Source: a virus (lineage: Duplodnaviria > Heunggongvirae > Uroviricota > Caudoviricetes). From it: a stretch of DNA of 25,709 bases. The DNA lies in IMG/VR virus record IMGVR_UViG_2547132488_000024, positions 1 through 25,709 of that record; one strand, written 5' to 3'. The notes below the pieces were generated by a model. The model searched no databases. It saw nothing but the letters and a program-made list of their open reading frames with translations, and was not told the origin of the DNA. A program made the position numbers and the translations under genes. Below, piece by piece: positions 15,745 to 22,915 of this stretch (the first letter of the stretch is position 1; the number at the start of each line of letters is the position of its first letter).

Positions 15745-16056
15745 TTACTCAGGAAATAACGCCCGGATATTCCCAGCCATCTGGCTGGTTATCTTAGCCA
15801 CTGGTGCAGACTGTGCTTCAAACTTTTTTGAGCTGATTTGTGTCACAGGTAATATCTCATCATCAGCCCATGCGGCCAGTCGGTAAGCCTCTGCCGGATT
15901 CGTCTTCAGAAGTGCCAGCCCGGCCAGAAAAGCCACGCGTTGGCCGCTTTTGCGGGCTTCTGGTGTAAGGCTGTCCAGCCAGGCGCATGCTTCTCCTTCG
16001 TTCTTGACGGCAGCTGGCTTCAGATAGAAACTTATTCTTCTGGTTGGTGTCGTCAT
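15745..16056 (-). CDS. parR: ParR-like centromere-binding adaptor, 103 aa (RHH-type N-terminus similar to R1 ParR)
   Basis: Immediately downstream of parM with RBS AAGGAG; ISFYLKP...LDSL...AFLAGLALL resembles R1 ParR from memory. Confidence 0.6.
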   Translation of the reverse strand: MTTPTRRISFYLKPAAVKNEGEACAWLDSLTPEARKSGQRVAFLAGLALLKTNPAEAYRLAAWADDEILPVTQISSKKFEAQSAPVAKITSQMAGNIRALFPE

Positions 16057-16060
16057 TGGT

Positions 16061-17020
16061 TTACTCCTTGTTCATTGCGTACAGCCCATTAACCAGAGCA
16101 AATTGTGGCACCCCGTCCGCGATGAAAGTCGCATTAACTCCGCAGGCTTCGCGGATAGCGGGTGCCACAATCTCCGCCCCGCCACCGACAACCATCACCC
16201 GCCCGTAACCCGAAAAAACCGCCAGAGCGCGGATCACGCGTTGTTTCAGTGTTTCTTCCTTTTCACGAATAATCGCCATCAGGCTGGCGTAATGCGCGTC
16301 ATTGTGGATGTGCTGGCGCAACCAGGCTTCATCATGGCGATGTTCGATAATGGTATTGGCGATGTGGTGACTGGTGCGCATACCGTTAGTGGCCATCACC
16401 GACAGTACGGCATCGGCCATCAGAGAAACGCCTACGTGTGGATCGCAAAACACCTGGCTGATACCTGCCAGTTGCCCCTGAACCTTTGCCACATCCAGCG
16501 TGGTTCCGCCCAAATCCACAATCAGCAGGGATTCAAACGGACTCATGTCAGCCAGTGCCTTAAAGCCAGCCGGAATGGATTCAGGCATAACCCGCACGTT
16601 ACGGATAGTGAATGCTTCGCCGTTCTGGTACTCCACCGGGCGCATAACGTTCGCTTTTTTGCGGTTGATGTTGGCCATGTCCGGCTGTGCGTTTGTGTCG
16701 AAATACTCGCTCAGTGGCAGGGTGACAACCACATCCACCTCCCGTGGCGTGATGCCTGATTTGACCAGCGCGTGATGAATGGCAATGACATTCACATCGC
16801 TGTACTGGTATTGCGTGTCGGTCGTCTGGACAAAGCGATCGCTGACCGGATCAAAACCATAGCGCACGCCATCAAGCATGTAGTTCGCGGGCTGCGTGCC
16901 ACCGAACGGCGCAGACCATTCCGACTTGAAGCTGTTCGGGCTGATGGCGTTGCGGCGTTCGCCGTTCTCAGTCCATGCCAGCTTGATGTTGGTGGAGCCG
17001 TCGTCGATACAAATTCTCAT
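16061..17020 (-). CDS. parM: ParM/StbA-like actin-family partition ATPase, 319 aa
   Basis: IDDGSTNIKLAW, DLGGTTLD and VVGGGAEI phosphate/adenosine motifs; collinear similarity to R1 ParM from memory. Confidence 0.8.
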   Translation of the reverse strand: MRICIDDGSTNIKLAWTENGERRNAISPNSFKSEWSAPFGGTQPANYMLDGVRYGFDPVSDRFVQTTDTQYQYSDVNVIAIHHALVKSGITPREVDVVVTLPLSEYFDTNAQPDMANINRKKANVMRPVEYQNGEAFTIRNVRVMPESIPAGFKALADMSPFESLLIVDLGGTTLDVAKVQGQLAGISQVFCDPHVGVSLMADAVLSVMATNGMRTSHHIANTIIEHRHDEAWLRQHIHNDAHYASLMAIIREKEETLKQRVIRALAVFSGYGRVMVVGGGAEIVAPAIREACGVNATFIADGVPQFALVNGLYAMNKE

Positions 17021-17050: not shown

Positions 17051-17160
17051 GTTTACGGGATTTTTAAATCCCGTTTTCGCCTGTTTTGTGCGCGCTTCAT
17101 ATATCGCGGCGCGTTTTTTGCTCATTTACGGGATTTGTGAATCCCGTTTCTGTCTGTTTT
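17051..17160. repeat. Two ~40-bp direct repeats 73 bp apart, each with a 20-bp palindrome (ACGGGATTTTTAAATCCCGT at 17055-17074; ACGGGATTTGTGAATCCCGT at 17128-17147); candidate parC-like centromere/operator; second copy lies in the A gene 3' end
   Basis: Exact sequence; first copy sits about 35 bp upstream of parM start over the likely promoter. Confidence 0.55.
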
Positions 17161-19892
17161 TTGTTTCCACTGGTCAGGCTACCCCGCAGCAGGTCTGCTT
17201 TGCGGCGGGCGCGTTCAGTGGTTTCACTGATTCTCTGTGCGTGCTCTGCGTCACGAATGGCGCGCAGCATGTCAGAAAGCACGGTAACGGGGGTTTTCAT
17301 GGTGTTCTGGTCCTGCTGAAGTGTGGATGCCAGGCGTGCGGCGGCTTCGGGGTCTGATGCCCCGAGCTGTGCCAGATAGCTGGCGACCGGGTTATGGCGG
17401 ATCTCCGTGCTGCTTACGCCGTGATTACGGCTCAGGCGCTGCCAGAGCTGCGTGATTCGGCTGTCCGGGCGGGTATCCGGTTTGCGTACAATTTCAAATC
17501 CCTGCGGTGCAATGATGCTGCCGTCAACGTACAGACTGCCGCCCCGTAACAGGTGCTGCATCTGCTGTTCACCGATATGCAGGCCGAGAGATTCAGCAGA
17601 CTCCCGCCATTCTTTAGCGAGTAACTCGTGGTTATCAGGCAAAGGCCGCGGCTGTTTGCGGCTCTGTGTCCAGCTCTGCATTTCATCACTGCTGTTTTTT
17701 ACCTGTTTGTCACGAAGCGAACGCATCAGCGCCCGGCGCTCGTGTCGTTTCAGTGAGCGCATCCATTCATTTACTTCAACGCCGCCAGGGAGCTGTGGCC
17801 ACGGTGCTGGCTGTTCTGTCCCGTTGTTGCCTGTTTCCTGTACGCGGGGACAGTTATTGCCACGAGTCCAAGGGGCGGCAGGGCCGCCCTGAAGGTCAAA
17901 ACCATTTTCGCGGGCGCTGTCTTCCGCTTCCGGTTTACGTTTTACCAGCTTCCAGTTATCCGGATGCGTGCACACACGGGAGGATTCCCCGATGAGTGGT
18001 GACCAGATCCCGTAAATCTGTACGCTCTGTTCGCCGTAATCGTTCAGCTCATCGGCGAGGTCGTAGGCGGTGCGAATCAGGTAGTCTTTACGTGGAACAA
18101 GTACGCCGCCCTGTTTTTCAATGTAGGAGGCAAAACACCCGGCATCGGCGGCAGCGAGTACCGCATCCATTGCGTCATTCTTCAGCCGTTGCGGGCCTTC
18201 CGGGTTGCGTGCCATCTGGCTGGCAAGGCGGCGGAGTTCACGCCACACCTGACGGGAGGGAATGCCAAAGAACTGGAACTGGCGGACCCGGTGAAGGCGC
18301 GCCCAGCCGATGGCGCGTTCCACGCTCTCGGCCATTGATTTTCCTGTTTCGTGGTCAACGCGTGGCTTGCCCGTTTTCGGGTCGATGCCATCCACGGCGC
18401 GGCTGTCCAGGTTCTTTCCGATGTAGGTGGCGATGTAGCTGGTTGGTGTGCCTTTTGAGCCGTCGACATACTCCACCTTAAAGCGTGGGGTAATATCATC
18501 ACCCAGCTCGTGGCGGTCTTCCTGAATGGCAATATCGCGGGTGATGGCCACGATGCTGTCGATTTCTTCCGGATGAGCAAAGACCATCATGTGCCAGTGC
18601 ACGGTGCCGTCATGGTGAGGCTCCACCGTGCGGATGCCATACCAGCGCAGGCCGTCGCGGTTCAGTTTTTTGCGGACCGCCGCAAAAAACGTGTTAACCA
18701 GGTAATCGCTGGAGTCGCGCATAGTGGCCCCGTTCCATTTGGGGTTCGGATGACCGTTCTCTGTTGTGGCGTGGTATTTTGACGGGCAGGTGACAGTCAG
18801 AAACACCGCTTTGTCGCCACGGGCTTCGGCCAGAAGTTCCAGCCCCTTCATGGTGGCCATCATTTCTGCCTTACGGTGAACCGGGTTACTTACTCCCGCG
18901 TAATACACTGTCTCAAGATCAATCGTGAACCCGTCTTCGTTTTCCAGCATGAAACTTTTCAGGAAATCGCGTGTTTTCTCGCGCTGTGCGCGAAACTCGC
19001 TTAACGCGTCCTGGCTCAGATAGGGTGATGTTTTTCTGGAAACCAGACAGGCGGCGCGGAGTTGTTCTTCTCTCCACTCGCAACGTAACAGCCACAGTTT
19101 GCGTTTCCACCAGTCCGCACAGGTCAGGCGAAGGATTGCGCCCGGTAACAGTTCCGTATCCGGATCGCTCTTGTTCAGAGCTTCGTAATATGGCGGCATG
19201 GCGTGCAGGTGTAACGCCATGCGGGCCAGCATCTGATACGCCTTCAGCGTTACATCCATGGTCAGTTCGCCATCGGTCGCGCCAAAGCCATCGCAGAGTT
19301 TTTCGAAGGTGCTGCTGAACATCGCCGCCGTCATGGTGGCCAGCGTCTGTATCTGGTGTTTGTTGAGCTGCGGCAGGTAAAGCAAATCGTCCAGGCGTTC
19401 GCGTCCGGCAAGGGAGCGATAACCCGGTGTCAGCCAGCGCCCGTCAGTGCGATCCAGACGTTCGAATATTTTGCGCAGGGTTCCGCGTGCATAGCGTTCT
19501 GCCTGCCAGCTCTTTTTGCCTTTCCGGCGATCGGCTTCCTGTTTTTTGCGCAGGAAAGAGAGGTGGCGAATAAGCGGATCGCGCAGATAGGACGGCAGCA
19601 GGCGCAGCGAGGCCATGGCTTCATCCACCGCGCCGCGTGCCTGTTTTTTGGCGTCTCCTGCCAGTGTGATGGTTTTGTCCTGTTTTTCCTGTGCGTCCAG
19701 GCTTTTATTAATCAGGTTGCCCAGCGGCGTGGCGGAGAACGCCGCATCAGCCATTTCCTGGCGGCGCTCGTTCTCTATCCGGTAGGCACCCAGCCAGGAG
19801 GAAAGCGCGGATTCAGGAGCGGGGATCCCCGTTCCTTCACGCCCCACTGCGTGGCGCGGTTGTTGCCAGTCCCTGATGTACTCTGCCGTCAT
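17097..19892 (-). CDS. A: Rolling-circle replication initiator (P2 gpA-like), HUH motif HWHMMVFAH and catalytic tyrosine pair YIATYIGK; 931 aa from first ATG, longer than P2 A
   Basis: HUH and Y-x3-Y motifs; synteny. Confidence 0.85.
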   Translation of the reverse strand: MTAEYIRDWQQPRHAVGREGTGIPAPESALSSWLGAYRIENERRQEMADAAFSATPLGNLINKSLDAQEKQDKTITLAGDAKKQARGAVDEAMASLRLLPSYLRDPLIRHLSFLRKKQEADRRKGKKSWQAERYARGTLRKIFERLDRTDGRWLTPGYRSLAGRERLDDLLYLPQLNKHQIQTLATMTAAMFSSTFEKLCDGFGATDGELTMDVTLKAYQMLARMALHLHAMPPYYEALNKSDPDTELLPGAILRLTCADWWKRKLWLLRCEWREEQLRAACLVSRKTSPYLSQDALSEFRAQREKTRDFLKSFMLENEDGFTIDLETVYYAGVSNPVHRKAEMMATMKGLELLAEARGDKAVFLTVTCPSKYHATTENGHPNPKWNGATMRDSSDYLVNTFFAAVRKKLNRDGLRWYGIRTVEPHHDGTVHWHMMVFAHPEEIDSIVAITRDIAIQEDRHELGDDITPRFKVEYVDGSKGTPTSYIATYIGKNLDSRAVDGIDPKTGKPRVDHETGKSMAESVERAIGWARLHRVRQFQFFGIPSRQVWRELRRLASQMARNPEGPQRLKNDAMDAVLAAADAGCFASYIEKQGGVLVPRKDYLIRTAYDLADELNDYGEQSVQIYGIWSPLIGESSRVCTHPDNWKLVKRKPEAEDSARENGFDLQGGPAAPWTRGNNCPRVQETGNNGTEQPAPWPQLPGGVEVNEWMRSLKRHERRALMRSLRDKQVKNSSDEMQSWTQSRKQPRPLPDNHELLAKEWRESAESLGLHIGEQQMQHLLRGGSLYVDGSIIAPQGFEIVRKPDTRPDSRITQLWQRLSRNHGVSSTEIRHNPVASYLAQLGASDPEAAARLASTLQQDQNTMKTPVTVLSDMLRAIRDAEHAQRISETTERARRKADLLRGSLTSGNKKQTETGFTNPVNEQKTRRDI

Positions 19893-19898
19893 AGTGAT

Positions 19899-20264
19899 TT
19901 ACTTCGTCATGCCATTCAGGGTGTCGCGGCAGACTGTAGCCAGCCGCTGAATTTCCAGCACGGTGTCTTCTGTGTCGGCATGGCGATGTGTGATGCGGAT
20001 GCTGTCGGCAATCACATCGACGATTGCAGAGGATGGGCGCTGGTAAATGCCAATAACGTACGGGGTGCCACCTTCAATGCGGTAAAGCCTGTAATTTCCC
20101 TCGTGGCTGTCAATCATGTAGCGACCATCAATAACAATCTTTCCGTCAGCGAGCTGCGGTACAGGCAGGGATTTCAGGTACATGTCATAACGTTCACGCA
20201 CGCGAACGGCAAGATCACGCTCTGTGTTGAGCAGGTATTCAAGAAAGTCGTTGGCGAGAATCAT
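19899..20264 (-). CDS. Hypothetical early protein, 121 aa, immediately upstream of A
   Basis: ORF tightly coupled to A; no family recognised. Confidence 0.55.
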   Translation of the reverse strand: MILANDFLEYLLNTERDLAVRVRERYDMYLKSLPVPQLADGKIVIDGRYMIDSHEGNYRLYRIEGGTPYVIGIYQRPSSAIVDVIADSIRITHRHADTEDTVLEIQRLATVCRDTLNGMTK

Positions 20265-20336
20265 TGCGGCAATCCTCTTGTTACAGATGTGCGAAGGCCT
20301 CCCGCCGCAAGGTGCAGGAAAGGCCCGGAACAGGAA

Positions 20337-20567
20337 TTAATGGAGTTTGTTTTGCTGCTGGATGAGCTGCTGAAGCTCGCGCAGATCATCCGCCAGATAG
20401 CTGAAAACAGCGGATGAGTAGAGGTTTGAAAGTTCGCAGCTACGCTCATGCAGCATATTGATGTGCATGATTTTAGCGACGCGGAATGCGCGGGAAAGTC
20501 TGCGGTTGATTTCAGTCTGGATGTGACGACGCTCCGCGATAGCGCGGTGCTGTTTGCGGTTTGCCAT
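20337..20567 (-). CDS. Hypothetical basic protein, 76 aa (MANRKQHRAIAERRHIQTEINRR...)
   Basis: ORF with protein-like composition; competing 206-aa overlapping ORF rejected. Confidence 0.45.
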   Translation of the reverse strand: MANRKQHRAIAERRHIQTEINRRLSRAFRVAKIMHINMLHERSCELSNLYSSAVFSYLADDLRELQQLIQQQNKLH

Positions 20568-20744
20568 GATATGTGGCCTCTTGTAGTAAGTTGTGAAAAC
20601 TCACCATCCAGAGGTTCCAAGCTCGGGGTGGTGAGACGTACAGGGTTGGAACTACCGGCTACAAGAGATCCCGGCCCGACCGAAATCGGCCCCGTACGCC
20701 CCACCATAATTCGTGTGCGAAAAAGACGTGGCAATACAGTACGC

Positions 20745-20767
20745 ACAAAAAAACCGCTGGCGCGGTT
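20745..20767 (-). terminator. Weak intrinsic terminator on minus strand (AACCGC-TGGC-GCGGTT, then U7)
   Basis: Short GC stem followed by A-run on plus strand. Confidence 0.3.
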
Positions 20768-20903
20768 GTGCGCTCTTGTAGTCTGCGGGGTTCCAATCCC
20801 GGCACCCGTTTTATGAGGTGCAGCGGAAATGTAACCTGACTGATTGCGGCATGGCAAGCGGTTTTTTTGTGAGAACGGCATACTAAAAAATCCTGATGCT
20901 GCT

Positions 20904-20928
20904 CCGGCCAGCGGTTTCCACTGGCCGG
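20904..20928. terminator. Hairpin CCGGCCAG-CGGTTTCCA-CTGGCCGG directly downstream of the SPFH gene stop; probable operon terminator
   Basis: 8-bp perfect GC-rich stem; T-run 11 nt beyond on minus strand. Confidence 0.4.
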
Positions 20929-20934
20929 GTTTAA

Positions 20935-21759
20935 TTACTTCACCGGAACAAACGGAACAGCGGTATTACTGGTCATGTATTGCGGCAGCGTGCCGTTCCA
21001 TTTGTTGATTGCTTCCAGCTCCATAACACCGGGGTTCTGGCGCAGAGCTTCACCACGCAAACGAATGGCGTCGGCTTCAGCCTGGGCTTTTGTGCGAATG
21101 GCATCGGCCTGTCCGGCAGCTTCTGCGCGCAGCATGTTGGCTTCTGCTTCGCGTTGCTTGACTTCCTGCTCGCGTTGCAGGGTTTTCTGGTTTGCCGTGA
21201 CTTTGGCATTAATGCTGTCGATAACGGTTGGCGGATATTCCGGCTTACCCACATAAGAGAGGCTCATTACCTGAATGCCGATAGGTGTCATCTCTTCCTG
21301 AATGTCTTTAAGTGCTGAATCCAGCAGTTCAGACTTACCACCGTCGATAAACTTATCGGTGGTCATTTTGCTGGCCAGTCGGTTGAGTGCATCGGCGATC
21401 TTCTGGCGCAGGTCAGTGTCGGTAATGTCGTCCACGCCTTTGCGGTAGGTCTGAAACACTGTAGTAACTTTGGATGGATCAACCTTGTAGGCCACACCGA
21501 TGTGATAGCCGATGGTTGTGCCGTCACTCATCTGAAAGCTGAACGGCTCATCGTAGGTCTTCATTTGTTTGAAGGTCGGGAAGATGTAAACCTCGGTATT
21601 CCAGCCTGTCCAGTAGCGACCAACGCCAACCACTTCACCGACGCCTTTATCGTCGCCCAGTTTGTTGACTTTGATGCCTACATTGCCCGGCTCCACGCGG
21701 TCACAGCCAACCAGAAGTGTGGTCATCAGGAGAGGGATGAGTGGTAATAGTTTTTTCAT
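20935..21759 (-). CDS. SPFH/band-7 (stomatin/prohibitin/HflKC-like) lipoprotein, 274 aa, lipobox LLVGC, Ala/Glu-rich coiled-coil C-terminus
   Basis: Signal peptide with lipobox, SPFH-like core, coiled-coil repeat EAEANMLRAEAAGQADAIRTKAQAEADAIRLRGEA. Confidence 0.8.
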   Translation of the reverse strand: MKKLLPLIPLLMTTLLVGCDRVEPGNVGIKVNKLGDDKGVGEVVGVGRYWTGWNTEVYIFPTFKQMKTYDEPFSFQMSDGTTIGYHIGVAYKVDPSKVTTVFQTYRKGVDDITDTDLRQKIADALNRLASKMTTDKFIDGGKSELLDSALKDIQEEMTPIGIQVMSLSYVGKPEYPPTVIDSINAKVTANQKTLQREQEVKQREAEANMLRAEAAGQADAIRTKAQAEADAIRLRGEALRQNPGVMELEAINKWNGTLPQYMTSNTAVPFVPVK

Positions 21760-21968
21760 TGTTTGGTTTCCATAATTGCTTTGATGTAGTTACTGAAAAA
21801 GCGGACAACGCCCGCCGGGTACAGCAAGGCAACAAAAATGCCCAGCAATACCAGGAAGGAGCTGTCTGATGAGATCATTCGGGGGAGTAGTCCTGCATAC
21901 AGAATGATAGAGACGAGGACGCATACCAGCGCCCACACGTATGCGCGAAACCAGGTCTTTTCGTTCAT
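21756..21968 (-). CDS. Small two-helix membrane protein, 70 aa, translationally coupled (ATGA overlap) to the SPFH gene
   Basis: Two hydrophobic segments; 4-nt overlap with downstream gene. Confidence 0.6.
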   Translation of the reverse strand: MNEKTWFRAYVWALVCVLVSIILYAGLLPRMISSDSSFLVLLGIFVALLYPAGVVRFFSNYIKAIMETKQ

Positions 21969-22023
21969 GTCGGTTGCTCTCTTTTGTTATTCAGGAAAAA
22001 GTCAAAAACGTTATCGATGCGCA

Positions 22024-22182
22024 TCATGAGTCGCGCTGCATCGCTTCAGGTGTTTCTGGTTCGCCAGGTGATCCAAATCCAGCGAAGAAATCACCGATCT
22101 CGCTTTGAATGAGTTCCTTTAGTGTTGGCGGGGAGCTCAGGCGTGTACGGCGATGTCTGCGTGTAATTCTCCTTCTGTTCAT
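22024..22182 (-). CDS. Small Arg-rich protein, 52 aa (MNRRRITRRHRRTRLSSPPTLKELIQSEIGDFFAGF...), below ORF-track cutoff; ATGA-coupled to upstream gene
   Basis: In-frame ATG overlapping the stop of the 67-aa gene; found by manual translation. Confidence 0.4.
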   Translation of the reverse strand: MNRRRITRRHRRTRLSSPPTLKELIQSEIGDFFAGFGSPGEPETPEAMQRDS

Positions 22183-22382
22183 CTGCGTGACTCCTGTACG
22201 TGTCGGATAAGGTTCACCTGCACCACGTTGGTGGCGCAGAAGTAAGTGTCGTCAGTGAGATAAATGTGATGCGCGTCAGGTTGCGAACGGTGACGGTCGA
22301 GCGTTTTAATCAGCCGTTCGTCAACTTCGTATTCACGCCCTCTGGATGTGAAACGAATGACGGAAAAACGCTTAATTGCCAT
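22179..22382 (-). CDS. Hypothetical protein, 67 aa; start codon 4 nt downstream of a G11 tract
   Basis: ORF in early operon; poly-G at RBS position. Confidence 0.5.
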   Translation of the reverse strand: MAIKRFSVIRFTSRGREYEVDERLIKTLDRHRSQPDAHHIYLTDDTYFCATNVVQVNLIRHVQESRR

Positions 22383-22386
22383 TGCG

Positions 22387-22397
22387 CCCCCCCCCCC
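22387..22397. repeat. Homopolymer tract C11 (G11 on coding strand) between two early genes, in the RBS region of the 67-aa gene
   Basis: Eleven consecutive C read directly. Confidence 0.9.
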
Positions 22398-22411
22398 TTT
22401 GTCCAGTAACC

Positions 22412-22822
22412 CTATGCGTTAAATACGGTGCGCTGTGCGTCATCAATGAATGCGACTTGAGAGCGCTCTATCAGGCGGAGATTTGTCAGAATTTCTGATT
22501 CCCTTATGGGGTGAGGAGTGATCAGGTATTTATCCTGTAATCCGGCGATAATGGTGTATCGCTGTAGCTCCGAGCCAATTGTGTAAATAAGGCGTCCGGT
22601 GTTAGACAAATCCAGCCCGGTGACTGGTTGTGTTCTGAGAACCGCCAGTTCAGCATCCTGTTTTGCGATAATTTCGGCTGCTTCTGTCGTGACTCTTGCG
22701 ACTATCAGTGTGTGGGTTGCGACGTCCATATGATTATTTGCTATGGCTTTTTTCGCTACTTCGTTTTCTGTCTTTGAAATTTCTTTCAGTGCTCTGATGA
22801 TACCTTCTTCTTTTGCGTGCAT
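22412..22822 (-). CDS. Hypothetical early protein, 136 aa (RBS GGAG)
   Basis: ORF with RBS; no family recognised. Confidence 0.55.
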   Translation of the reverse strand: MHAKEEGIIRALKEISKTENEVAKKAIANNHMDVATHTLIVARVTTEAAEIIAKQDAELAVLRTQPVTGLDLSNTGRLIYTIGSELQRYTIIAGLQDKYLITPHPIRESEILTNLRLIERSQVAFIDDAQRTVFNA

Positions 22823-22915
22823 TTTTGTATCTCCGTTATTTGCGTGTGCGAATACCTCCGTTAATACGGATGGTTTTCACGTTTTCTTATTTAATTTGAT
22901 GTTTTATTTGTATCG

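Follow-up and report, generated by a model that had tools for sequence, protein, structure and literature searches.

A two-gene prophage module assigned by sequence to the coliphage N4 gp19/gp20 family and predicted to form an HflK/C-like assembly on the periplasmic face of the inner membrane

A P88-like prophage, represented here by a 25,709-nucleotide stretch of a Caudoviricetes genome (IMG/VR record IMGVR_UViG_2547132488_000024, positions 1 to 25,709; hereafter the window), has among its early genes one for a 70-amino-acid (aa) membrane protein that overlaps another for a 274-aa lipoprotein of the SPFH (band-7) family. Profile matches and gene order assign these two genes, as an accessory module, to the family of coliphage N4 gp19/gp20 (PHROG 1130 and PHROG 200). 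We show that a structural reading of the pair as a lipid-anchored, periplasm-facing, HflK/C-like SPFH assembly, whose hairpin partner would replace the transmembrane (TM) segment, is well supported by homology and structure prediction. For its role, the best model overall, which we hold with somewhat less than even confidence, is that the pair would build such a cage during lytic development and wall off a patch of the host inner membrane. The evidence does not favour a defence system of the lysogen. Searches of the literature that paired SPFH-type terms (SPFH, band 7, prohibitin) with phage-related ones (phage, prophage, exclusion, defence), as well as searches on N4 gp20 and on the Stx "serine protease", returned no functional study of the SPFH pair, in keeping with a first-pass annotation of this DNA that had called the module uncharacterised. 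The two genes, with coordinates as in that annotation, and the segment that bears them are listed below.

21756..21968, minus strand: small partner gene (70-aa open reading frame, ORF)
20935..21759, minus strand: SPFH/Band-7 lipoprotein gene (274-aa ORF)
20872..22175, no strand assigned: variable segment bearing the pair, between conserved early-operon flanks of P88-like phages, one with isrK, C4 and the derepression gene, the other with the 67-aa gene (blastn)

A predicted lipid-anchored SPFH protein

The 274-aa protein matches the Pfam Band_7 profile (PF01145) with 108.4 bits against a cut-off of 23.6 (E=5.5e-31; residues 21-207, profile positions 2-176 of 176) and PHROG 200 at E=1.5e-111. 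Its N-terminus (MKKLLPLIPLLMTTLLVGC, directly followed by Asp) is a lipoprotein signal peptide with a lipobox, LVGC (MKKLLPLIPLLMTTLLVG-C19), which conforms to the pattern [LVI][ASTVI][GAS]C and places Asp at position +2 relative to Cys19. The stop codon of the 70-aa gene and the start codon of the 274-aa gene overlap as ATGA, and from this arrangement the 274-aa gene appears translationally coupled to its partner. These results bear out the first-pass description of an SPFH-like lipoprotein coupled to a two-helix 70-aa membrane protein.

The lipobox Cys is invariant in a 12-sequence alignment (38-61% identity to the window protein), and a lipobox is present in 106 of 120 close and 110 of 139 distant full-length homologues. 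The +2 residue of the 106 close homologues with a lipobox is Asp in 101 and Glu in 5. With Asp at this position, the window protein is predicted to be retained in the inner membrane by Lol avoidance. We noticed that in abundant homologue variants (P0106, P0114 and P0060-P0064; SSU5-like plasmids, Klebsiella) the lipobox Cys is replaced by Tyr, Trp or Phe, as in GIIGY-DRVEP, with one such cluster occurring on 175 contigs. The signal peptide of these Cys-less variants would therefore remain as an uncleaved membrane anchor, and lipidation is not indispensable in the SPFH lipoprotein family. Some distant SPFH homologues carry a plain N-terminal signal-anchor helix in place of the lipobox, so that, taken with the Cys replacements, the membrane anchor appears interchangeable and the topology kept.

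The AlphaFold2 (AF2) model of the window protein, built from a 108-sequence alignment, reached a predicted local distance difference test score (pLDDT) of 92.6. It consists of a beta-rich SPFH core, helices, a long Ala/Glu/Gln-rich helix (177-241), which corresponds to the Ala/Glu coiled coil noticed in the first pass, a short helix (243-253) and a C-terminal tail modelled with low confidence (KWNGxLP...PFVPVK in the family, KWNGTLP..AVPFVPVK in the window). Foldseek searches of the PDB ranked HflK/HflC first (7vhq, E=4e-14), followed by the human prohibitin complex, erlin1/2, stomatin, flotillin, QmcA-YbbJ and the major vault protein; the alignments were full-length (240-300 columns), with E between 4e-14 and 1e-11 for HflK/C, PHB1/2, erlin1/2 and stomatin. 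All of these listed relatives form closed rings or cages, and in the three best matches (HflK/C, prohibitin and erlin) the body lies on the non-cytoplasmic face of the membrane, as predicted for the window protein. In the model, SPFH core, long helix and C-terminal segment are arranged as in the cage-forming members. By sequence only, HflK (E=1.2e-4) and a prohibitin-2 fragment were the sole solved relatives recovered. Many phage and giant-virus SPFH proteins also match, and functions have been described for none of these.

The small partner and natural fusions

The 70-aa partner has two hydrophobic helices, basic residues at both ends and, between the helices, a conserved turn motif, P-x-[LM]-[IVM]-S (LLPRMISS in the window). 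It matches the PHROG 1130 profile at E=1.4e-20, a profile also matched by the partners from Stx2 phages (7e-23) and SSU5-like plasmids (2e-25). Searches of Pfam gave no match and searches of NCBIfam a single non-significant one (E=0.064). The suggestion of an NfeD-like partner is thus abandoned, as Pfam and NCBIfam hold no significant match and 70 aa are too short for an OB domain. Across phage types the partners share 20-41% identity; the window and P88 partners share 83%.

Natural fusions indicate how the two proteins may be placed relative to each other. Scanning 1.84 billion cluster representatives with HMMER yielded 2887 matches at E<1e-3, of which 216 passed E<1e-30; most were 270-300 aa in length. 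Among the top 150, about 22 exceed this size (322-392 aa) and have an N-terminal extension of about partner length. The 13 of these whose sequences we inspected consist of a two-helix partner-like segment, a signal peptide with lipobox and the SPFH domain, and an Iamiaceae contig carries a continuous 383-aa partner-SPFH fusion ORF. The AF2 model of one fusion places three N-terminal helices (pLDDT 70-82) ahead of the SPFH body. Standalone and fused partners align in register, having in common a Gly and a Pro in helix 2 and the Pro and Ser of the turn. We predict from these sequences that the partner is an inner-membrane hairpin with both termini inside (N-in/C-in), with its conserved turn and the SPFH body in the periplasm, because the partner-SPFH fusions require such a topology. 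The fusions and the signal-anchor variants point to the inner membrane independently of Asp at +2.

Distribution among phages, plasmids and bacteria

The SPFH gene occurs in 716 of 5426 complete E. coli genomes (13%), about evenly on chromosomes and plasmids. The pair adjoins xis/int in Stx2 lambdoid phages, follows recA/exonuclease in SSU5-like plasmids (~110 kb) and sits exactly in the upl-trnI slot of P1-like phage-plasmids (e.g., RCS47), a slot of the C1-controlled ban operon that holds tciABC in P1. Set side by side, RCS47 (L004, 3001-4045) and P1 (L106, 14234-14930) carry the SPFH pair and the TerB-like tciABC, respectively, as alternative cargo of one slot. Among the 640 plasmid records with the SPFH gene, 604 are non-mobilizable and 64 are from Yersinia, the listed Y. 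pestis examples being ~100 kb. A two-helix ORF of 62-78 aa abuts or overlaps the SPFH start in each Stx2, P1-like and SSU5-like case examined, these partners all matching PHROG 1130, and the partner lies directly upstream of the SPFH gene in 79 of 80 IMG/VR loci, the 80th being at a contig end with only 210 bp upstream.

Virulent phages are included in this distribution. By tblastn, 406 of 50,697 phage records encode the SPFH protein. In N4-like phages, where the pair comes after RNAP2, the SPFH protein is 64.5% identical to that of the window (Jura gp20); Jura gp19 bears the partner turn motif, and in Jura the pair is labelled N4 gp19/gp20 and has annotated terminators on both sides. PVP-SE1 and its relatives have gp115 as the partner and gp117 as the SPFH protein. 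The Burkholderia phage Maja keeps the pair, and both PVP-SE1 and Maja have it among other small membrane proteins. Further matches came from Bruynogheviruses, phiEa104, phiCbK, crAss-like, Lak and jumbo phages, the homologues of phiCbK and crAss-like phages being more distant. The gene upstream of the SPFH gene in TL, phiEa104 and phiCbK is not recognisable as a PHROG 1130-type partner. A locus search with the 12-sequence alignment returned 12 genomes, and the pair is kept in genomes of Pantoea, Yersinia, Kluyvera and Lelliottia and in the distant ones of Leptospirales, Pseudomonas and Vulcanibacillus.

The SPFH protein is labelled "serine protease" or "putative serine protease" in Stx2, P1-like, phiCbK-like and other phage records, apparently a propagated legacy label, which a note in the PVP-SE1 record traces to phage phiP27. 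No protease domain was found in the SPFH protein, and this annotation of the SPFH genes is wrong.

Selection on the pair

Over the 245-codon mature core, the P88-like, Stx2 and P1-like copies differ by 0.007-0.012 nonsynonymous (dN) and 0.38-1.10 synonymous (dS) substitutions per site (dN/dS ~0.01-0.03); against the SSU5-like copy, dN is 0.12 and dS is saturated. The signal peptides of the copies are 30-55% identical, and nucleotide homology between contexts begins at about codon 16-17. This starting point raised the possibility that the SPFH core had spread in a recent sweep, after recombination with a breakpoint at the lipobox, a reading rejected because dS of the mature part already amounts to 0.4-1.1. 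Since dS is this large, the contrast between core and partner reflects constraint rather than age or recent transfer. The sequences thus speak for extreme purifying selection on the mature SPFH domain next to a freely diverging partner. Such constraint would fit a tightly packed homo-oligomer in contact with a conserved host component, not an arms race with other phages. A dN/dS of ~0.01 puts this exported SPFH domain with the most tightly conserved proteins to be expected among accessory phage genes.

Optional cargo of a P88-like early operon

The first pass had taken P2 as the reference backbone; the window is instead a P88-like (Xuanwuvirus, Peduoviridae) prophage, with P88 homologous over 19801-22075 (blastn). 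The module is 100% identical to a chromosomal copy in E. coli HNSQ2209, where the prophage adjoins pheL. Within the P88-like early operon, the pair precedes gene A. In blastn comparisons, homology to vB_EcoM-705R2 and Shae_phiSM stops at 20871 and restarts at 22176, the pair being missing from both, and in Shae_phiSM the slot holds a D5-like DNA-binding gene instead. The isrK/C4/derepression flank is found in 1152 of 5426 complete E. coli genomes, and the SPFH-isrK junction in 145 of these 1152 (~13%). Because relatives share the flanks without the pair and only a part of the flank-bearing genomes has the junction, we regard the pair as optional cargo in a variable slot, which upholds the first-pass view of an accessory rather than core module. 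That annotation had also called it a moron. Absence from close relatives agrees with this designation, but a promoter of its own was not found in the three contexts scanned: a consensus promoter scan, a crude method, detected no sigma-70-like site upstream of the pair in the window, the Stx2 or the P1-like context.

A candidate mechanism and its rivals

On sequence and homology, the first gene would provide a small N-in/C-in hairpin protein of the inner membrane, and the second an exported SPFH protein, lipid-anchored at Cys19, retained at the inner membrane and with its whole body in the periplasm. By homology to HflK/C, prohibitin and erlin, the SPFH protein may assemble as a closed multimeric dome on the non-cytoplasmic membrane face, to which the partner hairpins would contribute in trans the TM anchor or fence that classical SPFH proteins have in cis. 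Its gene context suggests that the pair would be expressed together with early or replication genes, and hence in lytic development and not from its own lysogen promoter. We place its role in lytic development because of the early/replication placement in four unrelated temperate lineages, the separate transcription unit in N4-like phages and the presence in virulent phages. In the last and least certain step, the assembly might wall off a patch of inner membrane and thereby sequester or shield a highly conserved inner-membrane component of the host, or stabilise the membrane, to the benefit of phage development. By analogy with HflK/C, a quality-control protease of the FtsH type would be the paradigm client. 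A more specific proposal makes the pair a viral counterpart of HflK/C, whose cage would take hold of a conserved machine of the host inner membrane (FtsH or another complex for quality control or transport) and thereby reprogram membrane proteolysis or integrity in the infected cell. Such a strategy would be common to N4-like, rV5-like, P2-like, lambdoid, P1-like and SSU5-like phages; this proposal we consider unlikely as it stands, if worth keeping in view.

Several observations weigh against the lytic-cage model and the HflK/C likeness beneath it. Identity between the phage protein and HflK/HflC is only 16-18%, and the NCBIfam equivalog scores are low (hflC, 25.7 bits against a cut-off of 134.4; hflK, 23.5 against 159.4). 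The Arg at +3 may weaken the retention signal given by Asp at +2. The promoter scan is crude enough for its result to be compatible with expression in the lysogen, and a patchy accessory distribution is also typical of exclusion genes. Lastly, PM0222, an HflK/C-like prophage protein of Pasteurella and a putative member of the phage SPFH family, is detectably expressed in the lysogen (PMC9872710). As for the low equivalog scores, orthology with HflK/HflC is rejected, both being far under the cut-offs.

Ranked by likelihood, the rival explanations are superinfection exclusion, then lysogenic conversion, then a holin-like partner under cage control. Exclusion, or envelope-level defence, would have the SPFH assembly and its partner block DNA entry or envelope penetration as T4 Imm and Sp or the lipoprotein exclusion proteins do, and we give it real but clearly minority weight. 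It would suit the envelope location with a lipoprotein and a small membrane partner, the optional cargo status in a variable slot (145 of 1152 genomes), the spread over unrelated temperate phages and phage-plasmids, and the company of small membrane proteins in PVP-SE1 and Maja. Early expression and presence in virulent phages are compatible with it as well, T4 also having exclusion genes. However, a scan of PADLOC-DB 2.0 gave no match for the SPFH protein and, for the partner, only PDC-M18B (E=0.017 over 22 residues), which is not significant, so the first-pass classification as a defence-type module found no backing there, and the literature searches yielded no functional report on the pair. 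A dome over a membrane patch is not an obvious general block to injection, and a dN/dS of ~0.01 for the periplasmic domain is opposite to what an arms race would leave. More generally, a lysogen-benefit or arms-race role is disfavoured because virulent phages (N4-like gp19/gp20, PVP-SE1) carry the pair and because dN/dS is so low.

The protein could instead be a lysogenic-conversion or virulence lipoprotein, expressed from the prophage, altering the envelope (vesicles, capsule, serum resistance) and acting as a TLR2 ligand, as reported for PM0222. In Pasteurella multocida, PM0222 (Pmorf0222) is a 25-35 kDa HflK/C-like protein of a lambda-like prophage, found in cells and outer-membrane vesicles and linked to envelope and virulence phenotypes (PMC9872710). 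The frequency of the SPFH family in Stx2 phages and on ~100-kb Y. pestis plasmids would be in line with such a role. We nonetheless judge it improbable: the homology of PM0222 to the phage SPFH family is only putative, virulent phages of non-pathogens and environmental taxa commonly have members of this family, an own promoter was not found in the window, Stx2 or P1-like contexts, and Asp at +2, the inner-membrane partner and the fusions place the SPFH protein at the inner membrane, not at the surface.

More improbable still is a lysis-timing or toxin-control pair, in which the SPFH cage would restrain a holin-like or depolarising partner until a trigger, be it a lysis clock or abortive infection, sets it free. 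With ~60-80 aa, two helices, N-in/C-in topology and a charged C-terminal tail, the partner has the shape of a class II holin, and the two genes are tightly coupled and sometimes fused. A permanent fusion of toxin and restrainer is, however, hard to square with triggered release, and it is the partner that is poorly conserved and the supposed restrainer that is nearly invariant. The pair lies outside the lysis cassette, the holin, endolysin and Rz-type genes of the prophage being elsewhere, in the late region, and the partner matches no holin family in Pfam or PHROGs.

We retain the lytic-development cage as the leading account.

Flanks of the module and neighbouring genes

The remaining features of the locus are as follows.

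20904..20928, minus strand: GC-rich hairpin with an 11-bp stem, starting 7 nt past the SPFH stop codon
22024..22182, minus strand: Arg-rich 52-aa ORF (coordinates as in the first-pass annotation)
21965..22182, minus strand: frameshifted short ead/Ea22-like gene, a flank remnant of which the 52-aa ORF is the 5' part
20747-20821, minus strand: isrK-like small RNA (sRNA; Rfam isrK, 71.3 bits, at the gathering threshold), outside the module
20624-20711, minus strand: C4 antisense RNA (Rfam C4, 79.2 bits, at the gathering threshold), outside the module
20857-20828, minus strand: promoter-like site (promoter scan), outside the module

The hairpin after the SPFH gene had been read as a terminator. 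A strong hairpin does exist (a 79-nt region folds at -26.9 kcal/mol, z=-3.9), but it is not a canonical terminator of the coding strand. The terminator scan did not call it on the minus strand, because the coding-strand U6 run (20885-20890) lies 13 nt downstream, and gave a weak plus-strand call at 20912-20927. The hairpin falls within the segment missing from the pair-less phages, whose insertion boundary is at 20871/20872. Downstream of the pair in SSU5-like and N4-like elements lie canonical terminators.

The 52-aa Arg-rich ORF, which had been counted as a coupled third gene, exists and is ATGA-coupled, though to the upstream 67-aa ORF (22179-22382) and not to the 70-aa gene, from which it is separated by 55 nt. 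Its C-terminal half (..GSPGEPETPEAMQ) matches residues ~62-83 of the ead/Ea22-like gp10 of phage P88, and what remains of the gp10-like sequence (RIDNVFDFFLN..) is found in a different frame as far as 21965, at which point it would ATGA-overlap the 70-aa start as P88 gp10 does. An unbroken 60-aa ORF with the same Arg-rich N-terminus occurs in a Salmonella prophage (L088), and the NCBI Prokaryotic Genome Annotation Pipeline (PGAP) marks 21965-22102 as a pseudogene in the identical HNSQ2209 locus. On the strength of the gp10 match, the frame break, the intact Salmonella version and the pseudogene call, we interpret the 52-aa ORF as a decayed flanking gene. Window positions 22076-22175 stand in place of 440 bp of P88. 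The ORF is absent from the Stx2, P1-like, SSU5-like and N4-like contexts of the pair, and as a third member of the cassette it was rejected in favour of a frameshifted ead/Ea22-like flank remnant.

Upstream, the pair is preceded by genes for 136-aa and 67-aa proteins. A run of 11 C (22387-22397; G11 on the coding strand) lies a few bases before the ATG of the 67-aa gene and after the stop of the 136-aa gene. This tract may be prone to slippage, with effects on translation initiation, or else a sequencing-prone site. Positions 22392-22838 form a second variable segment of the early operon (136-aa ORF at 22412-22822; PHROG 9338, function unknown), present in Shae_phiSM and vB_EcoM-705R2 and not in P88.

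Downstream come the isrK-like sRNA, the C4 antisense RNA, a "derepression protein" gene, a 121-aa gene and the replication endonuclease. The two RNAs lie back to back just upstream of the 76-aa "derepression protein" gene (20337-20567, Pfam PF25738), a layout reminiscent of immI, the antirepressor region of P1/P7 under c4 control, here in a P2-type early operon. PGAP places an "ash family" pseudogene over the isrK/C4 RNAs, and a 206-aa ORF (20261-20881) that overlaps them is probably spurious, although its equivalent is annotated as a coding sequence in vB_EcoM-705R2. The replication endonuclease (17097-19892, minus strand) has 931 aa in the window against 940 aa in HNSQ2209, a 27-nt difference; therefore, the window is not identical to HNSQ2209 throughout, despite its 100% identical module. 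Just downstream of this gene (15745-17020, minus strand), the HNSQ2209 annotation gives a ParM-like gene (319 aa) and a partition/stability gene (103 aa), which are segregation genes of the plasmid type in an integrated P2-like prophage.

Comparison with known systems

Among characterised systems, E. coli HflK/HflC, an SPFH cage associated with FtsH (PDB 7vhq, 7vhp, 7wi3, 9cz2), is the best solved match of the phage protein by sequence as well as by structure. Common to both are the order of SPFH domain, long helix and C-terminal segment and, as predicted for the phage protein, an inner-membrane anchor with a periplasmic body. HflK/HflC is, however, a K/C gene pair with an N-terminal TM helix, whereas the phage has a single SPFH gene, a lipid anchor and a separate two-helix partner. 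The SPFH-NfeD operons of E. coli (QmcA-YbbJ, PDB 8z5g; YqiK-YqiJ) resemble the module in combining an SPFH protein and a small membrane partner in two genes, and QmcA matches the fold of the phage SPFH protein at E=1.7e-8. The phage partner differs in lacking an NfeD/OB domain and in being encoded upstream; moreover, QmcA has its SPFH body on the cytoplasmic side, and the phage protein is predicted to be exported.

Coliphage N4 gp19 and gp20 are true homologues that constitute the same pair (PHROG 1130/PHROG 200), in virulent phages where it forms its own transcription unit. T4 Imm/Sp, T5 Llp, phi80 Cor and TP-J34 Ltp are likewise optional early phage small membrane proteins or lipoproteins at the envelope; this is an analogy only, with no relationship to the phage pair in sequence or fold. 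PM0222, a putative relative of similar size recovered from outer-membrane vesicles, contrasts with the phage SPFH lipoprotein predicted at the inner membrane. For the family in phages, the role of SPFH has been described as "still not clear", in a report that noted the gene in obligately lytic Pseudomonas phages (PMC8540360).

SPFH cages are known structurally (HflK/C-FtsH, prohibitin, erlin, stomatin), and their clients and purpose are debated. Judged by the structural model, the phage pair is an architectural variant of the SPFH cage, with a lipid anchor, a partner supplied in trans and unusually strong conservation. As a compact version amenable to genetics in N4, P88 or P1-like elements, it could reveal both the purpose of such cages and what phages need at the host inner membrane.

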